A stretch of 40,594 nucleotides of DNA. Source: Minisyncoccia bacterium. GTDB lineage: Bacteria > Patescibacteriota > Minisyncoccia > UBA6257 > HR35. A program made the translations under genes and the position numbers. The DNA is taken from NCBI GenBank assembly GCA_049970635.1, contig JBMFMO010000001.1, positions 1 through 40,594 of the forward strand, read 5' to 3'. This document shows positions 102 to 34,444 of the stretch, in pieces. How positions within the stretch are numbered: the first letter of the stretch is position 1; each line of letters starts with the position of its first letter. The notes beneath the pieces were generated by a model. It made no database searches, was not told the origin of the DNA, and saw nothing but the letters and a program-made list of their open reading frames with translations.

Positions 102-139
102 ATTCGTGACTAATTCGTGTAATTCGTGAATAATTCGTA
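102..139 (+). repeat. Phased word array: ATTCGTG x4 (last copy ATTCGTA)
   Basis: Word starts at 102, 113, 122, 133 (spacing 11, 9, 11). Confidence 0.85.
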
Positions 140-142
140 TAC

Positions 143-232
143 CGCGGATTAACCAACCACGGATATACGCGGATAGTGTTAATAAGCCGCGGATTAACGC
201 GGATAAATAATAAGCCGCTGATTAACGCGGAT
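143..232 (+). repeat. Phased word array: CGCGGAT/CACGGAT/CGCTGAT x7, including a 28-bp tandem duplication (181-208, 209-236)
   Basis: Word starts at 143, 158, 168, 188, 198, 216, 226. Three pairs are exactly 10 bp apart, with 18-20 bp between pairs. The two 28-mers differ at one base. Confidence 0.85.
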
Positions 233-249
233 AAATATATTTAGTCATT

Positions 250-280
250 ATTCGGGTAATATATTCGGTTTTTATTCGGG
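250..280 (+). repeat. Phased word array: ATTCGGG/ATTCGGT x3
   Basis: Word starts at 250, 263, 274. Confidence 0.75.
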
Positions 281-308
281 CAGTTTATAATTATAATAAT
301 GGAAAAAT

Positions 309-366
309 TTCGCATCAGTTCGCGTATTGTTCGCATTGGTTCGCATATTGTTCGCATTGATTCGCG
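309..366 (+). repeat. Phased word array: TTCGCA/TTCGCG x6
   Basis: Word starts at 309, 319, 330, 340, 351, 361 (spacing 10, 11, 10, 11, 10). Confidence 0.9.
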
Positions 367-371
367 TAGCT

Positions 372-3437: not shown

Positions 3438-4862
3438 ATGAAACTTATTCCAAAAATTGGCTTAGAGATACATTTAGAATTAAAGACAAAAACAAAGATT
3501 TTTTGTAGATGCCCTAATGATCCTAATGAAATTCATCCAAATACAAATATATGTGAAATTTGCACAGGACAGCCAGGAACACTACCTTCTTTTAATAAAA
3601 AAGTTTTAGAATATGCTATTATGCTTGGCAAGGCTTTGAATTGCGAGATTAATAAATTTAGTTATTTTGTAAGAAAAAATTATTTTTATCCAGACCTTCC
3701 TAAAAACTATCAAATATCTCAATATGAATTGCCTTTATGCAAAGATGGTTATTTAAAGATTAAAAATGGAAAAAAGATAAGGATAAGAAGGGTTCATATA
3801 GAAGAAGACACTGGAAGATTGGTTCATATAGGAAATGAAAGTTTTGTTGATTTTAATAGGGCTGGAATACCATTATTAGAAATAGTTACAGAGCCAGATA
3901 TAGAATCTTCTGAAGAGGCAAAAAGTTTTGCAGAAGAATTAATTTTAATAGCTAAATATTTAGGAATATCTGATGCAAGCCCTGAAAAAGGTGAAATAAG
4001 ATTTGAAGCAAATATTTCTATTGCGCCTGAAGATTCAAAAGAATTAGGAACAAAGGTTGAGGTTAAAAATTTGGGCTCCTTAAGATCATTAAGAGATGCT
4101 ATAGATTTTGAGATTGAAAGACAGATGAAATTATTCAAAGAAGGAAAGGAAATAATAAGAGAAACAAGAGGATTTGACGAGGGAAAAAGAATAACATTTT
4201 CGCAAAGATGGAAAGAAGAAGCAGAAGACTATAGATATTTTCCTGAACCAGATTTACCTCCTATAATCTTATCTGATGAATATATAGAATCAATACAAAT
4301 AAAAGAATTACCAGAAAAAAGAAGGGAAAGATTCCAAGCTGAATATAATTTAAGTCCTGATGAAACAGAGATTTTTATAAAAAATAAAGAGCTTGGAGAT
4401 TTTTATGAAAAAACCTATTCTGAATTAAAGGCTATGATGGAAATTTTTGATACTAAACTTCTTTATAATATTTTGGTAAATGATGTTTTAGGGCTTTTAG
4501 AAAAATATGAAAAAGAATTAATAGATTTAGATTTTAAACCATATGACCTTGCATTACTTTTGAACAAATTACAAAAAGATGAAATTAGTATTAAAATTTT
4601 AAAAGATATATTAAAAGAAGTTATAGAAAAGAATGAAAGTGTTAAAAGTTTATTAGAGAAAAAGAAAGTTTTAAAAGATGAGAATATGATATTAGAATTA
4701 ATTGAAGAAGTTGTAAAAGAAAACCCAAAAGCTGTTGATGATTATAAAAAGGGGAAAGAAGGTGTTTTACAATTTTTCATAGGAGAATTATTGAAAAAAA
4801 CAAAGGGGCAGATTGATATAAATATAGCAAAAGATTTATTAATTAAAAGATTAAAAGAATGA
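3438..4862 (+). CDS. gatB: Asp/Glu-tRNA(Asn/Gln) amidotransferase subunit B
   Basis: 474 aa. IGLEIHLEL..CxC..CxxCTGQPGTLP N-terminus and a C-terminal YqeY-like tail. gatA and gatC are not adjacent. Confidence 0.9.
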   Translation: MKLIPKIGLEIHLELKTKTKIFCRCPNDPNEIHPNTNICEICTGQPGTLPSFNKKVLEYAIMLGKALNCEINKFSYFVRKNYFYPDLPKNYQISQYELPLCKDGYLKIKNGKKIRIRRVHIEEDTGRLVHIGNESFVDFNRAGIPLLEIVTEPDIESSEEAKSFAEELILIAKYLGISDASPEKGEIRFEANISIAPEDSKELGTKVEVKNLGSLRSLRDAIDFEIERQMKLFKEGKEIIRETRGFDEGKRITFSQRWKEEAEDYRYFPEPDLPPIILSDEYIESIQIKELPEKRRERFQAEYNLSPDETEIFIKNKELGDFYEKTYSELKAMMEIFDTKLLYNILVNDVLGLLEKYEKELIDLDFKPYDLALLLNKLQKDEISIKILKDILKEVIEKNESVKSLLEKKKVLKDENMILELIEEVVKENPKAVDDYKKGKEGVLQFFIGELLKKTKGQIDINIAKDLLIKRLKE

Positions 4863-5695
4863 TTAAAAGAAGGTATATTTTTTACATCCTATCAACAATA
4901 ATTTTTTTATTTGGTGGGTTTGCTCCTAATATCTTTAATATAAATTATGGGATAGATTTAAAGGGAGGGCAATTGATTGAAATTAGAACGAGTTTAAAAG
5001 ATATAAATTTTATTTTAAAGGAGATGAATATAAGCGGTGATTTGACAAAAACAAAAGATAGCATAATATTAAAAACAAGAAATGTTGATCCAAACCTTCT
5101 TTTAAACGAGATAAAAAGATATGATCAAAACGCAAAGATAGTAAAATTAGATGAAATTAGCCCTTCATTAAGCGGAGAACTTGTTAAAAAATCACATCTT
5201 GCAATATTATTTGTTTTATTAGGTATAGGAATTTATATAACAATAGCATTTTGGGAAAAAAGAGGATTAATAAGTGGTTTTTTGTTTGGGATTGTAACGG
5301 TTATAACATTGTTTCATGATGTTATAGGAAGTTTGGGGGTCTTTACATTACTTTCTCATATATACAATTTTGAATTTAATATAAATATAATAATAGCATT
5401 TTTACTTGTCGCATCTTTTTCAACACATGATACAATAGTTGTTTTTGATAGATTAAGAGAAAATTTAAAAAGAGCTGGGAAAATATCTGAAGATATTTTT
5501 GAAAATTCTATAAGGCAAACAATTGTAAGATCTACAAATATTTCTTTAACAATAATATTATCAATATTACCTCTATTATTTTTGATTGAAAATATAAAAC
5601 CATTTGCTTTAGTTTTAATAATAGGAACAATAATAGGAACTTATTCTTCTTTATTTTTAGCAACTCCACTTGTTTATGATTTAACAAGAAAATGA
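4859..5695 (+). CDS. secF: Protein-export membrane protein SecF
   Basis: 278 aa. NYGIDLKGG motif and a six-helix hydrophobic profile. ATGA overlap with gatB. No adjacent secD. Confidence 0.8.
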   Translation: MIKRRYIFYILSTIIFLFGGFAPNIFNINYGIDLKGGQLIEIRTSLKDINFILKEMNISGDLTKTKDSIILKTRNVDPNLLLNEIKRYDQNAKIVKLDEISPSLSGELVKKSHLAILFVLLGIGIYITIAFWEKRGLISGFLFGIVTVITLFHDVIGSLGVFTLLSHIYNFEFNINIIIAFLLVASFSTHDTIVVFDRLRENLKRAGKISEDIFENSIRQTIVRSTNISLTIILSILPLLFLIENIKPFALVLIIGTIIGTYSSLFLATPLVYDLTRK

Positions 5696-6333
5696 AAATT
5701 ATACCTGCTATAAATACTAGAAGTTTTGATGAGGCTAAAGAAAGGATAAATTTATTAAAAGATTTGACAAAAGATTTTCATATAGATATTTCTTCAATTG
5801 ATTTTTCAAATTATGAAACTTGGCAAAATCCTAAAGAAATTGATAAATTAGACGACGATTTAAAACTTCATCTGCATTTAATGATAAGATTAAAACCACA
5901 AGAAATTTTAAAATGGGATAACAAAAGAATTAAATCTTTTATCTTGCATTTAGAAGGAACAAATTTACCAGATGCTTTATTAAAATTTTCTAAAAAAACT
6001 AAAAAAAGTATATTTGTTGCATGGAGCCCTAAGATAGAAAAAGAATTTATTGAAAGATATATAAAATTTGTAGATGGAATTTTAGTTTTAGGAGTTGAGC
6101 CTGGAAAATCTGGACAAAAAATTTTGGAAGATACATTTGAAAGAATAAAAATAGCAAAAAATTTTTTAAATAATAAACAAAAACTAATAGTAGATGGAGG
6201 AATTAATATGGAAAACATCAAAGATATAATAAAGCTTAATGTTGATATTATAGTTATAGGATCAGCAATATTTGAGGGAAATAACCCAAAAGAAAACTAT
6301 TTAAAGTTTTTAAAAGCCGCTGATGAACGCTGA
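5692..6333 (+). CDS. rpe: Ribulose-phosphate 3-epimerase family protein
   Basis: 213 aa. IIPAI, HIDIS, LHLHLM, GVEPGKSGQKI and VDGGIN..VIGSAIF match the Rpe barrel signature positions. The sequence is divergent. Confidence 0.65.
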   Translation: MKIIPAINTRSFDEAKERINLLKDLTKDFHIDISSIDFSNYETWQNPKEIDKLDDDLKLHLHLMIRLKPQEILKWDNKRIKSFILHLEGTNLPDALLKFSKKTKKSIFVAWSPKIEKEFIERYIKFVDGILVLGVEPGKSGQKILEDTFERIKIAKNFLNNKQKLIVDGGINMENIKDIIKLNVDIIVIGSAIFEGNNPKENYLKFLKAADER

Positions 6334-6362
6334 TAAATAATGAACCACGGATTTACGCTGAT
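6318..6362 (+). repeat. Phased word array: CGCTGAT/CACGGAT x4, starting inside the rpe 3' end
   Basis: Word starts at 6318, 6328, 6346, 6356 (spacing 10, 18, 10). The rpe stop TGA (6331-6333) lies inside the second word. Confidence 0.8.
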
Positions 6363-6367
6363 ATTAT

Positions 6368-6409
6368 ATTCGTGAATAATTCGTATAGTTTATTCGTGAT
6401 TAATTCGTG
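6368..6409 (+). repeat. Phased word array: ATTCGTG x4 (one copy ATTCGTA)
   Basis: Word starts at 6368, 6379, 6392, 6403. The last word abuts the TATAAT at 6410. Confidence 0.85.
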
Positions 6410-6415
6410 TATAAT
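6410..6415 (+). promoter_or_regulatory. TATAAT -10 box 8 nt upstream of the trpS ATG
   Basis: GTATAATATAATAAAATG. No Shine-Dalgarno is present. Confidence 0.4.
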
Positions 6416-6423
6416 ATAATAAA

Positions 6424-7404
6424 ATGAAAAGGATTTTAACTGGAATAAAGCCAACAGGAGAGATACAGCTTGGAAATTATTTAGGAATGATAAAAAACAT
6501 TATTGATATGCAAAATAAATATGAAATTTTTTTAATGGTTGCTAATTTGCATGCCCAAACAGTTCCATTTGACCCAAAAGAGATAAAAAGATTAACTTAT
6601 GATTTAGTTTCATCTTTTATAGCTCTTGGGATTGATCCTAAAAAAACAACAATATTTCTACAATCTGATGTTCCTGCTCATCTATATTTATATTGGATTT
6701 TAGGATGTATTTCTCCATTAGGAGATTTAATGAGAATGCATGAATTTAAGGAGCAAAGTCAAAGATATAAAAAAGAAGGAGTTGGGGCTGGAATTTTAAT
6801 GTATCCTGTTTTAATGGCTGCTGATATTTTAATTTACAATGCTGATTTAGTACCAGTTGGTGAAGATCAGAGACAGCATGTTGAGCTTACAAGAGAATTA
6901 GCAAGAAAATTTAATAGATTATTTGGAAAAACATTTAAAATTCCTGAAATTTTTATACAACCAGAAACAGCTAAAATAATGAGTTTAGATAATCCAAATA
7001 AAAAAATGTCTAAGTCTTTACCGGAGGGATGTTTAGAAATATTTGCAGATGAAAAAGTTATAAAAGAAAAGATATTAAAAGCTGTTACTGATTCAGGAAA
7101 AGAGATAAAATATGATCCAGTAAATAAACCAGCTATAAGTAATTTAATGACAATCTATAAATATTTAACTAAGAAAACATATTCTGAAATTGAAGAAGAA
7201 TTTAAAGGAAAGGGATATTATGAATTTAAAAATGCTATAATAGATGCATTCTTCAAATATTTTGATAAAGTAAGAAAAATTAAAAAGAAAATTAATAAAA
7301 ATTTTGTAAAAAAGATATTAAAACAAGGAGCAGATAGAGCAAACAAAACAGTAAACAAAAACCTAAAGCTCATATTGAAAAGAACAGGGTTAATTTTAGA
7401 TTAA
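6424..7404 (+). CDS. trpS: Tryptophan--tRNA ligase
   Basis: 326 aa. N-terminal GIKPTGEIQLGNYLG (class I HIGH region), GEDQRQH, and a KMSKS motif. Confidence 0.9.
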   Translation: MKRILTGIKPTGEIQLGNYLGMIKNIIDMQNKYEIFLMVANLHAQTVPFDPKEIKRLTYDLVSSFIALGIDPKKTTIFLQSDVPAHLYLYWILGCISPLGDLMRMHEFKEQSQRYKKEGVGAGILMYPVLMAADILIYNADLVPVGEDQRQHVELTRELARKFNRLFGKTFKIPEIFIQPETAKIMSLDNPNKKMSKSLPEGCLEIFADEKVIKEKILKAVTDSGKEIKYDPVNKPAISNLMTIYKYLTKKTYSEIEEEFKGKGYYEFKNAIIDAFFKYFDKVRKIKKKINKNFVKKILKQGADRANKTVNKNLKLILKRTGLILD

Positions 7405-7469
7405 AATATAAGAATATATAAAAAGTGGTTTAAAATAACAAATTAAAGCATTAGTATCAAAAGTAAACA

Positions 7470-7625
7470 TTAAATTACCTTCCTATCTTTCCTAATTCTT
7501 CTTTGCCACTTCAATGGATTTATTATTTTTTTATTTTTCCATAAACCAGCAGCTTTTTCCCAAATTTTCCAATTTTTCTTCAAAACCAATCTTTTTTCTT
7601 TTTTTATTTCTACTATTTTAGTCAT
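7470..7625 (-). CDS. Hypothetical small basic protein (51 aa), not in the ORF track
   Basis: Hand translation: MTKIVEIKKEKRLVLKKNWKIWEKAAGLWKNKKIINPLKWQRRIRKDRKVI. It lies downstream of the GC-rich island. No family was recognised. Confidence 0.3.
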   Translation of the reverse strand: MTKIVEIKKEKRLVLKKNWKIWEKAAGLWKNKKIINPLKWQRRIRKDRKVI

Positions 7626-7647
7626 AGTTTAATTACAACATAAATTA

Positions 7648-7733
7648 GCCTGCCTGCCCTCCCTGCCCTGCCTGACGGCAAGGCAGGGAGCGGGCCTGCC
7701 TCGCCTGGTCAAGGCAGGCAAACTTGCTTTGCC
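7648..7733. repeat. GC-rich island built from GCCTGCC/GGCAGGC words; three potential hairpins
   Basis: Hairpins: CCCTGCC (7666-7672)/GGCAGGG (7682-7688); GCCTGCC (7694-7700)/GGCAGGC (7713-7719); GGCAAA (7717-7722)/TTTGCC (7728-7733). Composition contrasts sharply with the AT-rich flanks. Confidence 0.7.
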
Positions 7734-7748
7734 AAAACCGAATAGAAT

Positions 7749-7823
7749 ATCCGCGTTCATCCGCGGTTTTTATTAGAGATCAGCGTATATCCGCGGCTGA
7801 AAATATATCCGCGTTAATCAGCG
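7749..7823 (-). repeat. Phased word array: ATCCGCG/ATCAGCG x6 (reverse complement of CGCGGAT/CGCTGAT)
   Basis: Word starts at 7749, 7759, 7779, 7789, 7807, 7817 (spacing 10, 20, 10, 18, 10). The array ends 1 nt from the dnaJ stop. Confidence 0.85.
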
Positions 7824-7824
7824 G

Positions 7825-8853
7825 TTATTGTTTTTCTATTTCTTCTTTGATTTTTTTTAGTAGTTCTTTGATTTTTGGAGTTAATTTTTTGATTGGTTTT
7901 ATATTTACTTTAATTATTAAATCTCCTCCATGTATACCATATCCAGGTATTCTTATATAATCTTCAGTAAAGTTTTCAGGAATTTTTACATTAATATCTT
8001 TGCCAAAAAAGTTTATCTTTAAATCTTTCCCCAATATTGCATCAATTATATTTAAATCTATAGATGTTATAATATCCCTTCCTTTTACATCATATTTTGG
8101 ATGTTTTTGTATATTTATTCTTATCAAAAGATCTCCGCTCTTTTTTGTTTTTGGATTTTGGTCACCCAAGCCTGCTATTCTTATAATTTCATATGGATTA
8201 AAGTTTTTGGGCAAATTTATCTTTACAACCTCATCTTTTATAATATATCCTCTTCCTTGGCAATTTTTACATACTTTTTCAGGAATTTTTCCTGTTCCAT
8301 TACAATTTCTACAAATTTTGCTAGTTTCAAAGATAAATCCTGTAAAGAAGCTTGATTTTGATCTTATTTTTCCATAACCATTACAAATAGGACATTTTAT
8401 TAATCTTTTAGTTTCGCTTCCTGTTCCATCACAATTTGGGCATATAACTTTTCTCTTAAAATTTATAACCTTTTCTATTCCATTTAAAATTTCTGGAATT
8501 GTAACATCAATATCTAAAATAATATCCTTACTTTTTTCTTCAGGATAAAAAGAAAAAAAATCCTCTAATAAATCAGATAGTAAATCATCAAAATCTTGTC
8601 TTCTAAAAAAGCTTTCCAAATCTTCAAATCCAAATCCAGGAAACTCAAATCTTCCCATCTTTCTTTTCATATCATACTCTTGCCTTAATTTTTTATCTGA
8701 CAAAATTCTATATGCTTCTAAAATTTTTTTAAATTTTTCAGCATCTCCACCCATATCAGGATGGTATTTTTTAGCAAGCTCCCTAAACCTTTTCTTTATC
8801 TCTTCTTCAGATGCATTCTCTGGTACTCCTAATATTTGATAATAATCTTCCAT
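7825..8853 (-). CDS. dnaJ: Molecular chaperone DnaJ
   Basis: 342 aa. J domain with YHPD. Four CxxCxGxG zinc-finger repeats: [32 protein letters not shown]. Confidence 0.9.
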
Positions 8854-9784: not shown

Positions 9785-11599
9785 TTATGTTTGTTGTTGT
9801 CCATAAAATTGTTGACCTATTTGTGAAATGATTGATGAAAGTTCTTTTATTTTATTATCAATCTCATCAGGATCATTGCTTCTATTTTTTATATCTTCTA
9901 ATTCCTTAATCTTATCTTCAATTGTCTTAACTAAATCTTCCGATATTTTATCTTTATAATCATTTAATATCTTTCTTGTCTGATAAATAATATTATCTGC
10001 CTGATTTTTTGCTTCTGCCAATCTTCTTTTTCTTAAATCTTCTTCTGCATGCATTTCTGCTTCTTTTTTCATCCTTTCTATCTCTTCTTTTGAAAGATTT
10101 GTTGATCCCTCAATTCTCACAGATTGTGTTTTACCAGTTGCCTTATCTTTTGCAGTAACAGTTAATATTCCATTAACATCAATATCAAATGTAACTTCAA
10201 TCTGTGGAACTCCTCTTGGAGCTGGTGGTATTCCATCTAAAATAAATCTTGCTAGTGTTTTATTATCATCTGCTATTGGTCTTTCTCCTTGGACAACATG
10301 AATTTCTACTGATGTTTGGTTATCTGCTGCAGTTGTAAATATTTCTGTCTTAGAATATGGGATCGGTGTATTTTTAGGAATCATAGGGTGAGCAATATTT
10401 CCTAATGTTTCAATAGATAATGTTAATGGTGTTACATCTAAAAGCAAAACTTCTCTAACCTCTCCTTGTAATATTCCTGCTTGAATTGCTGCTCCTATTG
10501 CTACAACTTCATCTGGGTTTATATCTTTTCTTGGTTCTTTTCCAAAATAATCTTTCACCATTTTTTGAATTAATGGCATTCTTGTTTGTCCTCCAACTAA
10601 AATGATCTCATCAATATCTTTTGGTGTTAATCCTATCTCTTTCAAAGTTTTATCAACTATCTCCATTGATCTTTCTACAAAATGTTTTGTTAAATTTTCT
10701 AATTGTGCTCTTGTAAGTTTAAAGTATAAATGCTTTGGCTGGCCTTCATAAGAAGTTATAAATGGAAGATTAATTTCTGTTTCATATAAAGTAGAAAGTT
10801 CTTGTTTTGCTTTTTCTGCTGCTTCTTTTAATCTTTGTAATGCTAAAGGATCTTTGCTTAAATCTATTCCTTCTTGTTTTTTATATTCTTCTATTAAAAA
10901 TTTAATAATCTCTTGATCAAAATCGTCTCCACCCAAAAATGTATCTCCACCTATCCCTTTTGTTTCTATAACATTATCTCCTATTTCTAAAACAGATACA
11001 TCAAATGTTCCGCCACCAAAATCATAAACTAAAATTTTTTGATTAACATTTTTATCTAATCCATATGCTAATGCTGCTGCTGTTGGCTCTGGTAATATTC
11101 TTCTAACATTAAATCCTGCTATTTCTCCTGCTGCTTTTGTTGCTGCTCTTTGTGAATCATTAAAATATGCTGGTACTGTTATAACTGCATCTGTTATTTT
11201 TTCTCCCAATTTTTGTTCAACATCTAATTTTATCTTTTGTAAAATCATAGCAGAAATTTCTTCTGGCCTATACCATTTATCTCCCATCTTAACTTCAACT
11301 CCTCCATTTGCAGATTCTCTTATTTCATATGGCAAAATTTTTTTAGCTTTTTGAACTTCTTCATCACTATATCTTCTACCAATCAATCTTTTTATAGAAA
11401 ATATTGTATTTTGAGGATTTGTTATAGCTTGTCTTTTTGCTAAAATCCCAACAATTCTTTCACCAGATTTTGAAATAGCAACAACAGAAGGAGTTAATCT
11501 CCCTCCTTCAGGATTTTCAATAACACGGGGAGTTCCAGCTTCAACAATCGCAGCAACTGAATTTGTTGTTCCTAAATCTATTCCTAAAATCTTTTGCAT
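9785..11599 (-). CDS. dnaK: Molecular chaperone DnaK (Hsp70)
   Basis: 604 aa. [19 protein letters not shown], and a full substrate-binding domain and lid. Confidence 0.95.
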
Positions 11600-11617
11600 T
11601 TTATTATTAATAATTAT

Positions 11618-11872
11618 TTAATTAATGTTAAAAAATTCTTTTAAATAATAATTATTTAATATTTCCTTATAATGGGATTGTTGGGAAATTTTTCTGTTAA
11701 CAGGAGATAAAAATTTTTTGAAGATAAAAATTTTGTTTAACAAAAAATTGTTATCCTTATAGGCTAAAAATCCCTTTATTTTCCTATATTTTTCAACATT
11801 ACAAAACCTTTCTTCAAAATTTTTTATTCTTCTATTTGTTGTTCCTAAACCTATTCCTAAAATCTTTTGCAT
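11618..11872 (-). pseudogene. Duplicated dnaK 5' end (first 13 codons) fused to an 84-codon open frame spanning an AT-rich insert
   Basis: 11834-11872 matches 11561-11599 at 38/39 nt. The ATG at 11872 sits 1 nt after the grpE stop. The frame stays open to 11618, 19 nt before the real dnaK ATG. Confidence 0.6.
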
Positions 11873-33954: not shown

Positions 33955-34026
33955 AGCCAGAGGTGGGATTCGAACCCACAACCTGCCGCTTACAAGGCGG
34001 CTGCTCTGCCATTGAGCTACTCTGGC
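33955..34026 (-). tRNA. tRNA-Thr(UGU)
   Basis: The reverse complement reads GCCAGAG TA GCTC AATGGCA GAGC A GCCGC CTTGTAA GCGGC AGGTT GTGGG TTCGAAT CCCAC CTCTGGC T. Confidence 0.9.
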
Positions 34027-34036
34027 TTATTAAATA

Positions 34037-34065
34037 ATTATAAGATAAAAGAATAAAGAGTTCAA
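34037..34065 (-). promoter_or_regulatory. Sigma70 promoter TTGAAC-17-TATAAT for tRNA-Thr
   Basis: -35 at 34065-34060, which lies in the unique insert. -10 at 34042-34037, which lies in the duplicated segment. The tRNA 5' end is 10 nt downstream of the -10. Confidence 0.55.
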
Positions 34066-34309: not shown

Positions 34310-34364
34310 AAGGCGGCTGCTCTGCCATTGAGCTACTCTGGCTTATTAAATAATTATAAGATAA
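34310..34364 (-). pseudogene. Duplicated tRNA-Thr 5' half (nt 1-33, 34310-34342) plus 22 nt of its upstream flank, including the TATAAT
   Basis: A 55-nt exact copy of 33994-34048. The identity ends inside the anticodon. Confidence 0.85.
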
Positions 34365-34444
34365 CACGGACTTAACACGGACAAGAACGGACTTAACGCA
34401 GACAGACGCCGACTTAACACGGACATACACGGACCAAAACGGAC
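34364..34444 (+). repeat. Phased word array: ACACGGAC and variants x8
   Basis: ACGGAC-type cores start at 34366, 34377, 34387, 34398, 34408, 34419, 34429, 34439 (spacing 11, 10, 11, 10, 11, 10, 10). Units 4 and 5 are ACGCAGAC and ACGCCGAC. Confidence 0.9.

Follow-up and report, generated by a model that had tools for sequence, protein, structure and literature searches.

A block of phased heptads between rpe and trpS of a Minisyncoccia bacterium is probably a gene-less copy of a palindromic repeat element

Introduction

Why are two housekeeping genes of an ultra-small bacterium separated by a block of repeated seven-nucleotide words, and do these words govern the gene that follows them? The locus that raises this question lies in a 40,594-nucleotide stretch of DNA from a Minisyncoccia bacterium (Patescibacteriota; assembly GCA_049970635.1, contig JBMFMO010000001.1, positions 1 to 40,594, forward strand), hereafter called the window, which has a G+C content of 27% and which by its genes and nearest protein matches belongs to Patescibacteria/Parcubacteria. 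There, a repeat block of 92 bases (6318-6409) fills the spacer between rpe, encoding ribulose-phosphate 3-epimerase, and trpS, encoding tryptophanyl-tRNA synthetase, as far as a TATAAT box. The original prediction, made from the window alone, saw in this block modular words that might control trpS and that either constrain or have overwritten the end of rpe. We compared the locus with its counterparts in relatives and with word arrays in public genomes. We consider it probable that 6316-6409 is a copy, without a gene and partly decayed, of a palindromic element built from phased heptads, which would have arrived by insertion or rearrangement and would be carried as a tolerated passenger. The family of such elements, called below the GxxExxY cassette family, is defined operationally in this analysis.

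Results

Direct reading of the left half of the block bore out the predicted positions: CGCTGAT starts at 6318, 6328 and 6356 and CACGGAT at 6346, giving a spacing of 10, 18 and 10. In the right half, where four copies of ATTCGTG had been claimed, three stand (6368, 6392 and 6403), whereas the word at 6379 is ATTCGTA; the spacing here is 11, 13 and 11, in pairs. A repeat finder resolved the left block into a tandem duplication of a 28-bp two-word unit (6317-6335 and 6345-6363) and the right block into a tandem duplication of a 24-bp two-word unit (6361-6384 and 6385-6408), which accounts for the pair-gap-pair spacing. All words of the window, read on one strand, are variants of ATYNGYG (F), the complement of which is CRCNRAT (R), and in these terms the locus consists of four R words, a 5-nt loop and four F words. 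The left arm (6318-6362, plus strand) carries CGCTGAT, CGCTGAT, CACGGAT and CGCTGAT in two copies of the 28-bp unit CCRCKGAT-nn-ACGCTGAT, and the same unit is found at 143-232 on the plus strand and at 7749-7823 on the minus strand. The loop, ATTAT (6363-6367, plus strand), is of a kind seen elsewhere, as loops of 1-13 nt separate the arms of other gene-less copies. The right arm (6368-6409, plus strand) carries ATTCGTG, ATTCGTA, ATTCGTG and ATTCGTG in two 24-bp units. These words are strongly enriched: the window has 7 copies of ATTCGTG, where 0.63 would be expected, and 19 of CRCKGAT, where 2.8 would be, counts that none of 100 shuffled sequences reached (0/100 for each word). Nearly all CRCKGAT copies fall within three arrays, at 143-232, 6318-6362 and 7749-7823. 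The two blocks look like the two arms, of four words each, of one palindrome-like element rather than a dedicated trpS switch.

The left arm begins inside rpe (5692-6333, plus strand), which encodes a protein of 213 residues matching Pfam PF00834 at residues 3-194 and which, from synteny with relatives, closes a conserved run of gatB, secF and rpe. As predicted, the first two words form the end of its reading frame, GCC GCT GAT GAA CGC TGA, so that the protein ends ...NYLKFLK-AADER*. We made the alignment of orthologues that had been proposed as a check. The tails of 30 Rpe homologues are short and mostly hydrophobic, with the consensus xFxxLIxx, and none reads AADER; the three closest homologues (83-84% identity) end ...EYLKFSK-LVII*. 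At the DNA level, the loci of four relatives (L081, L084, L088 and L089) align with the window through ...TTTTYAAAA and diverge exactly at 6316, where the relatives read TTAGTTATAATTTAA and the window reads GCCGCTGATGAACGCTGA. No words were found at the position of the rpe tail in the five relatives' loci inspected. This divergence at a position where relatives lack the words shows that the array has replaced the last four native codons and the stop, LVII plus stop giving way to AADER plus TGA (6316-6333, plus strand), and that the words are not a product of codon choice. Of the two fates considered for the rpe tail, overwriting is the one borne out, with homology ending at 6315/6316; the array does not act as a constraint on a conserved tail. 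The change was probably tolerated, because the replaced residues lie outside the epimerase domain recognized by Pfam.

The gene order around the array is also particular to the window. In close relatives a 47-codon membrane open reading frame (ORF) comes after the gatB-secF-rpe run, with convergent genes beyond it; in more distant relatives the rpe stop is abutted or overlapped by other genes of convergent orientation. The next gene lies 0-10 nt from rpe in these relatives, and in none is it trpS. The conserved 47-codon ORF (6641-6784 in L081, 4850-4993 in L084) is missing at that position of the window, and a -10-like TATAAT belonging to it is embedded in the last rpe codons of L081 and L084 (TTA GTT ATA ATT). 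The window trpS (6424-7404, plus strand, 326 residues) is homologous to its relatives from ATG to stop only. Where TrpS is 87-89% identical, trpS overlaps the upstream gene by ATGA, that gene being tyrS in L090-L095 and L098-L102 and murD in L096, L097, L508 and L509; efp or another gene follows, and no intergenic array precedes trpS in any of these relatives. A trpS search of genome contigs returned distant relatives only (at most 49% identity), and these were not used for synteny. Downstream of dnaJ, the relatives have an overlapping convergent rpiB, without array, GC island or small ORF. Since the flanks of rpe, trpS and dnaJ all differ in relatives, the segment 6316-7824, apart from the trpS ORF, is specific to this lineage. 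At the murD-trpS junction of L508 we noted a tandem duplication (4516-4559; GTTTATAATTTTTTAAAATGAA), murD ending at the first copy and trpS starting at the second.

The TATAAT box directly after the last word (6410-6415) lies, as originally described, 8 nt before the trpS ATG at 6424. Its proposed role as a -10 box is plausible. Among the 12 window genes with at least 20 free nt upstream, seven, including trpS, show TAnAAT-N6-8-ATG (upstream of 389, 2757(-), 3438, 6424, 19715(-), 20536 and 39933(-)); for the six genes without iorA (also 11 nt), the binomial P for this geometry is about 1e-6 to 1e-8. The N8 spacer of trpS equals that of gatB. No -35 was found before the trpS TATAAT, and matches to a sigma-70 -35/-10 pair are no commoner in the array than in shuffled sequences. 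A Shine-Dalgarno sequence was seen neither at trpS nor at the other starts inspected. Taken together, the TAnAAT boxes at 7 of 12 starts and the lack of a visible Shine-Dalgarno sequence suggest that leaderless transcription is widespread in the window, and the TATAAT with its 8-nt spacer (6410-6423, plus strand) is, from these geometry statistics, probably the -10 from which trpS is transcribed without a leader. It is therefore plausible that the right edge of the element holds a leaderless promoter. Read-through from rpe into trpS is also possible, since there is no terminator-like site at 6300-6420. Read in frame, 6410-6427 gives YNIIK plus a TGA that overlaps the trpS ATG and resembles the YNFLK* and YNLLK* tails of MurD in relatives; of the 14 nt before trpS, 12 agree with junctions of the murD type and 10 with those of the tyrS type, in sequence that is AT-rich. 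This is no more than a weak suggestion that trpS came from a murD-trpS junction and that the 14 nt are a remnant of the murD tail.

To place the words in a wider context, we searched public genomes with the pattern ATTCGTG-N3-4-ATTCGTG-N3-17-ATTCGTG, which matched at least 120 genome loci of many phyla with G+C contents of 30% to 70%. Among the matches listed are Verrucomicrobiota, Planctomycetota, Chloroflexota, Acidobacteriota, Nitrosomonas and a Thermoplasmata archaeon; the usual layout in this set is three CACGAAT words with a 10-bp period, a gap of 1-450 bp and three ATTCGTG words, and its adjacent arm pairs are oriented R>F in 62 cases and F>R in 5. Where the arms of the matches listed are about 400 bp apart, they enclose an ORF of 124-132 residues of the GxxExxY family (TIGR04256 / PF13366 PDDEXK_3), the only protein family that recurrently adjoins ATTCGTG arrays in that set. 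In the converse search, with a profile of 3 GxxExxY sequences, 55 of the 80 GxxExxY loci examined were flanked by three or more exact phased heptads, so the association of array and gene holds in this direction too. At these loci the left array extends over the start codon, the right one is placed after the stop, and the words of the two arms co-vary (CGCGAAT/ATTCGCG, CACAGAT/ATCTGTG, CACGGAT/ATCCGTG). In its full-length form the element encloses the gene of a GxxExxY nuclease of about 125 residues with the PD-(D/E)XK fold. The search for CGCGGAT arrays likewise gave at least 120 loci; among the matches listed, R>F pairs outnumber F>R pairs by 29 to 2, and one array encloses a GxxExxY gene. 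Vocabulary and polarity of this kind are thus shared by hundreds of loci of different phyla. Gene-less copies that nearly match the block described here, with four words in each pair-gap-pair arm, occur in Patescibacteria: L450 reads CGCTGAT-CGCTGAT--CGCGGAT-CGCTGAT followed by four ATCCGCG, and L448 has two copies of four CGCAGAT followed by four ATCCGCG. No description of phased-heptad/GxxExxY elements was found in the literature searched.

Triple arrays of ATTCGTG were also present in at least 117 IMG/VR viral contigs (L510-L626), often with an 11-bp period. The viral arrays are mostly single arms, with R>F and F>R orders almost equally frequent (6 and 7), and one of them lies near a GxxExxY gene; they show no clear link to carriage by phages.

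Close relatives show how such arrays behave at a given site. In L096 and L097, the murD reading frame contains, just before the conserved SPASASFEKF motif, an in-frame element of four CACGAAT-type words followed by four ATTCGTG; the trpS ATG is about 95 nt further downstream. In the MurD alignment this insert site (columns about 455-505) is empty in five orthologues and holds other inserts in others, a clear polymorphism of filled and empty states. At the same murD site, L508 (MurD 87% identical) has a GCCTGCC/GGCAGG hairpin, a degenerate CGCCGAT, two CGCAGAT and then six ATCYGCG. MurD ranges from 451 to 684 residues across the clade. One homologue, known as protein only (P0223), ends ...VYNIFRAADLRG with the tail RAADLRG, which looks like translated CGCGGAT words, comparable to AADER of rpe. 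ATCMGCG arrays lie at an orthologous spot by a ferredoxin gene in L081 and L084, with differing copy numbers and neighbouring word blocks. From the murD and ferredoxin sites, arrays are long-lived at certain sites, fast-changing in content and tolerated in coding sequence, unlike conserved operators. As a separate observation, the MurD inserts before SPASASFEKF are unrelated low-complexity sequence in several lineages.

These comparisons bear on the possibility that the words are operator or activator sites, on which a DNA-binding protein, for instance a winged-helix response regulator recognizing 7-bp direct repeats every 10-11 bp, oligomerises and controls the abutting promoters, including that of trpS. 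The architecture of the array would suit such a protein: the heptads are phased by 10-11 bp in a dimer-like two-word unit, the last word touches the probable -10 box, for which an activator could substitute the lacking -35, and at the three window loci the CGCKGAT words point in the direction of the gene downstream of them. Nevertheless, we regard this explanation as unlikely. The words are also met within the murD frame and at the 3' ends of genes, and orthologous sites of close relatives differ in the type and number of their words. In organisms as far apart as Verrucomicrobiota and an archaeon they flank a nuclease gene and not a regulon, and the neighbours of the window arrays (iorA, trpS, a tRNA and an orphan ORF) have no obvious common function. 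In addition, the trpS genes of relatives are translationally coupled to the upstream gene, without an intergenic array. The proposal that the word blocks control trpS thus finds no support in relatives whose TrpS is 87-89% identical, and regulation of trpS by the words would be the less likely reading.

A different role could be played at the RNA or single-strand level, where G-U pairing between CGCKGAU and AUUCGUG would form a hairpin with a part in the processing, termination or stabilisation of the rpe-trpS transcript. Compared by eye with AUUCGUG, CACGGAU can pair over all 7 positions and CGCUGAU over 6 of the 7 when G-U pairs are allowed, on the plus strand only, and the lowest-energy predicted fold does pair the arms. 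This fold is not exceptional, however: at -15.2 kcal/mol the RNA of the plus strand is less stable than the mean of its shuffles, -16.6 (z +0.5), and z is +1.5 both for the minus strand and for the DNA fold. Folds of 6310-6415, as RNA of both strands and as DNA, are no better than those of shuffled sequences, and we rejected the hairpin reading on this basis. A scan of 5600-8000 against Rfam 15 gave three sub-threshold chance hits only, none of them at 6300-6420, where a terminator-like site is also lacking. A function through RNA structure is accordingly very improbable.

The units between rpe and trpS have siblings elsewhere in the window. The 20-mer at 6368-6387, ATTCGTGAATAATTCGTATA, recurs unchanged at 122-141, and a 19-mer is common to 7806-7824 and 215-233; these identities go beyond shared words and show that the rpe-trpS units are copies of units at two other window loci. 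The array upstream of iorA (102-371, plus strand) is composite, with three ATTCGTG and one ATTCGTA, seven CGCKGAT/CACGGAT, three ATTCGGG-type words and six TTCGCRT, and it is the source or a sibling of the units at 6318-6409. The two loci had been thought to share the same pair-gap-pair pattern; that at 143-232 is similar, with pairs at 158/168, 188/198 and 216/226, but its gaps are 20 and 18. The idea of modular word blocks holds insofar as the blocks are copies of dispersed two-word units, but their order follows the standard arm-loop-arm polarity and not a free shuffling. Directly after the dnaJ stop lie six CGCKGAT words in two-word units (7749-7823, minus strand), inverted relative to 6318-6362. 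Between trpS and this third array are a lysine-rich orphan ORF of 51 codons (MTKIVEIKKEKRLVLKKNW...; 7470-7625, minus strand), which has no Pfam match and resembles small antitoxin-like proteins, and a GC-rich island of GCCTGCC/GGCAGGC words (7648-7733). No counterpart of the orphan ORF was found downstream of dnaJ in the relatives L303 and L304. Within the third array, the CGCGGAT two-word unit at 7751-7766 (CCGCG-N6-CGCGG) is self-complementary with a 5-bp G+C stem. A T-run follows it on the plus strand, and the site, right after dnaJ, was scored terminator-like on both strands. The T-variant units at 6317-6335 are unable to form such a stem.

The inverted disposition of 6318-6362 and 7749-7823 raises the possibility that they are the ends of a larger unit (6316-7824) whose cargo, trpS with the orphan ORF and the GC island, came in this way to lie between rpe and dnaJ. 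On this view, the block of ATTCGTG words is a further half-element nested in the unit. The two arrays share the 28-bp two-word unit in inverted orientation, with the R...F polarity of the family, and the rpe-to-dnaJ content is missing from those positions in relatives, where only the trpS ORF has homologues. A precedent for cargo might be seen in L081, where duplicated R-F elements (280-530 and 1130-1345; CCCGGAT words, then ATCCGGG words) flank a hicA/hicB-like toxin-antitoxin pair. The arrangement there has the look of a pair inserted into an array, with a long duplication of the target. Against a larger unit, rpe is next to dnaJ in no relative, so there is no empty site, and canonical arms hug their cargo gene, whereas here 345 bp of other DNA separate trpS from the right array. 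Moreover, the murD element of L508, in which a short GCCTGCC...GGCAGG hairpin precedes the R and then the F words, has an order unlike that of the window at 7648-7823. Finally, the arrays are co-oriented with converging genes, which alone yields an inverted pair. We therefore see the larger unit as a quite unlikely explanation of the segment.

We also asked whether the rpe-trpS adjacency could be a chimera of the assembly, made from contigs joined at the repeated array. The junction is indeed unique among relatives and lies exactly in repeated DNA. However, a chimera is unlikely because the longest exact repeats that the array shares with the rest of the window are only 19-20 nt. The usual k-mers of metagenome assemblers are longer than this. 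The rpe frame closes cleanly inside the array and the promoter geometry of trpS is ordinary, which leaves this explanation with a negligible weight.

We return to the reading of 6316-6409 as a gene-less, partly decayed copy of a phased-heptad element. The segment has the CRCNRAT/ATYNGYG words of the family, four words in each arm (in pairs, the family having at least three) and the R arm 5' of the F arm. Its arms are not reverse complements and its fold stability is not in excess. Several observations weigh against this assignment. Reverse-complement arms are usual in canonical copies, whereas here CGCTGAT matches CACGAAT, the reverse complement of ATTCGTG, at 4 of 7 positions and CACGGAT matches it at 6 of 7. 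No target-site duplication was found in the flanks TTAAAGTTTTTAAAA and TATAATATAATAAAA, and no GxxExxY gene in the window or in the 22 loci of relatives L081-L102. The element is missing after rpe and before trpS in relatives, whose gene order differs too; an empty rpe-trpS junction was found in no relative, which makes a clean insertion conjectural. A purely selfish element would predict neither that the CGCKGAT words are oriented like the next downstream gene at all three window loci nor that the window arrays end right at -10 boxes. Mobility of the family and binding of the words by GxxExxY proteins are inferred from architecture and distribution. As to the arms, single-position mismatches are also seen in L448 and L450, and the non-complementarity at 6316-6409 may reflect decay.

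The course of events that we propose is the following. The element would have reached the rpe-trpS site by insertion or by a rearrangement associated with the array, and would have grown there as its 24-bp and 28-bp units were duplicated in tandem. Its phased words, about one helical turn apart, would be putative binding sites of a protein of the element family, for which GxxExxY is the only recurrent partner. At this site the element would be a tolerated passenger whose main consequence is structural: trpS would be uncoupled from an upstream gene and left to the edge -10 box or to read-through from rpe.

A much broader picture can be drawn, which we put forward as a speculation. Such arrays might be the cis sites of undescribed, phylum-spanning, tiny selfish cassettes whose sole gene encodes a GxxExxY nuclease of about 125 residues. 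In the reduced genomes of Patescibacteria their gene-less descendants might be the main material of intergenic spacers and drive changes in gene order; they might delimit, on either side, a trpS segment that was translocated (6316-7824), write over the ends of genes and insert in frame into essential ones. Genes moved in this way might be left with no more than a minimal leaderless promoter at the edge of an element.

Two other duplications in the window were noted. The 5' part of a tRNA-Thr gene, with the TATAAT region upstream of it, is duplicated around an AT-rich insert of about 260 bp (33995-34050 and 34311-34366), and an array of eight ACGGAC begins right at the distal copy. At 11561-11872, a short ORF that starts with a duplicated DnaK N-terminus (MPKIIGIDLG...) lies just upstream of dnaK, as at 928-1209 of L303. 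This duplication seems old and conserved, because relatives with only 65% identical DnaJ carry a counterpart ORF.

Discussion

The rpe-trpS locus offers a base-resolved example of a repeat element that rewrites the end of a housekeeping gene and splits genes that are otherwise translationally coupled in the lineage. It also connects the unusual arrays of mixed words in an ultra-small bacterium with repeats that are found in many phyla, in a family that travels with an unstudied nuclease family. If this family is mobile, it would represent a new kind of small element and a likely cause of scrambled gene order and of variable gene lengths such as those of MurD (451 to 684 residues). The locus also carries a warning for annotation, since odd tails (AADER, RAADLRG) and low-complexity inserts in proteins of Patescibacteria can be translated repeat words.

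Repeats of several known kinds share some of these properties. The repetitive extragenic palindromes (REP), their mosaics (BIME) and REPINs of Proteobacteria, which are associated with RAYT transposases of the Y1 HUH type, are 20-40-bp hairpins with a conserved 5' GTAG. As here, the repeats are short, dispersed, palindrome-like and for the most part intergenic; their units combine into mosaics in either orientation, and they go with one small gene family occurring singly per element type. In contrast, the elements described here have phased heptad arms without significant hairpin stability, and their partner is a PD-(D/E)XK protein and not a Y1 transposase. Membership of 6316-6409 in the REP/BIME-RAYT class was rejected, as the segment has no GTAG and no fold better than shuffles. 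The Rickettsia palindromic elements (RPE) are units of about 100-150 bp with a conserved sequence, restricted to Rickettsia. They too are selfish-looking repeats of reduced genomes tolerated in frame within genes and at their ends, as are the murD inserts of L096 and L508 and the rpe tail, but there is no sequence relation, and here word arrays are found whose vocabulary spans phyla.

Miniature inverted-repeat transposable elements (MITEs) such as the Correia elements of Neisseria create promoters or transcript ends at their insertion sites. The likeness lies in gene-less derivatives of a larger element, placed at gene junctions beside a functional-looking -10 box, that can rewire the downstream gene. 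The present element differs in having no target-site duplication and in the internal periodicity of its terminal repeats, and we know of no transposase family for a phased-heptad element. A classical MITE was rejected for the first of these reasons and for terminal arms that are only loosely inverted.

Among regulatory repeats, the Pho boxes bound by OmpR/PhoB-type regulators consist of two to few repeats spaced by 11 bp, about 10 bp upstream of the -10 box, and are conserved across orthologous promoters. The array resembles them by its 7-nt words repeated upstream of a gene and by a similar spacing. An operator of this type was rejected, since trpS orthologues have no intergenic array and array content differs at orthologous sites. 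Intergenic repeats of the heptamer TAACTGA in Beggiatoaceae are described as direct repeats (PMC4679880). These are also 7-nt words upstream of genes, whereas the words described here are phased by 10-11 bp.

The closest counterparts are the GxxExxY cassettes themselves. The rpe-trpS locus departs from them by the lack of a nuclease gene, by four words per arm in two pairs instead of three evenly spaced words, by arms that are not complementary and by the several word types at one locus. It agrees with them in vocabulary (CRCNRAT / ATYNGYG), in the 10-11 bp spacing and in the R-then-F polarity, and the cassettes, like the arrays described here, have gene-less short forms and copies at gene junctions and in frame within genes.

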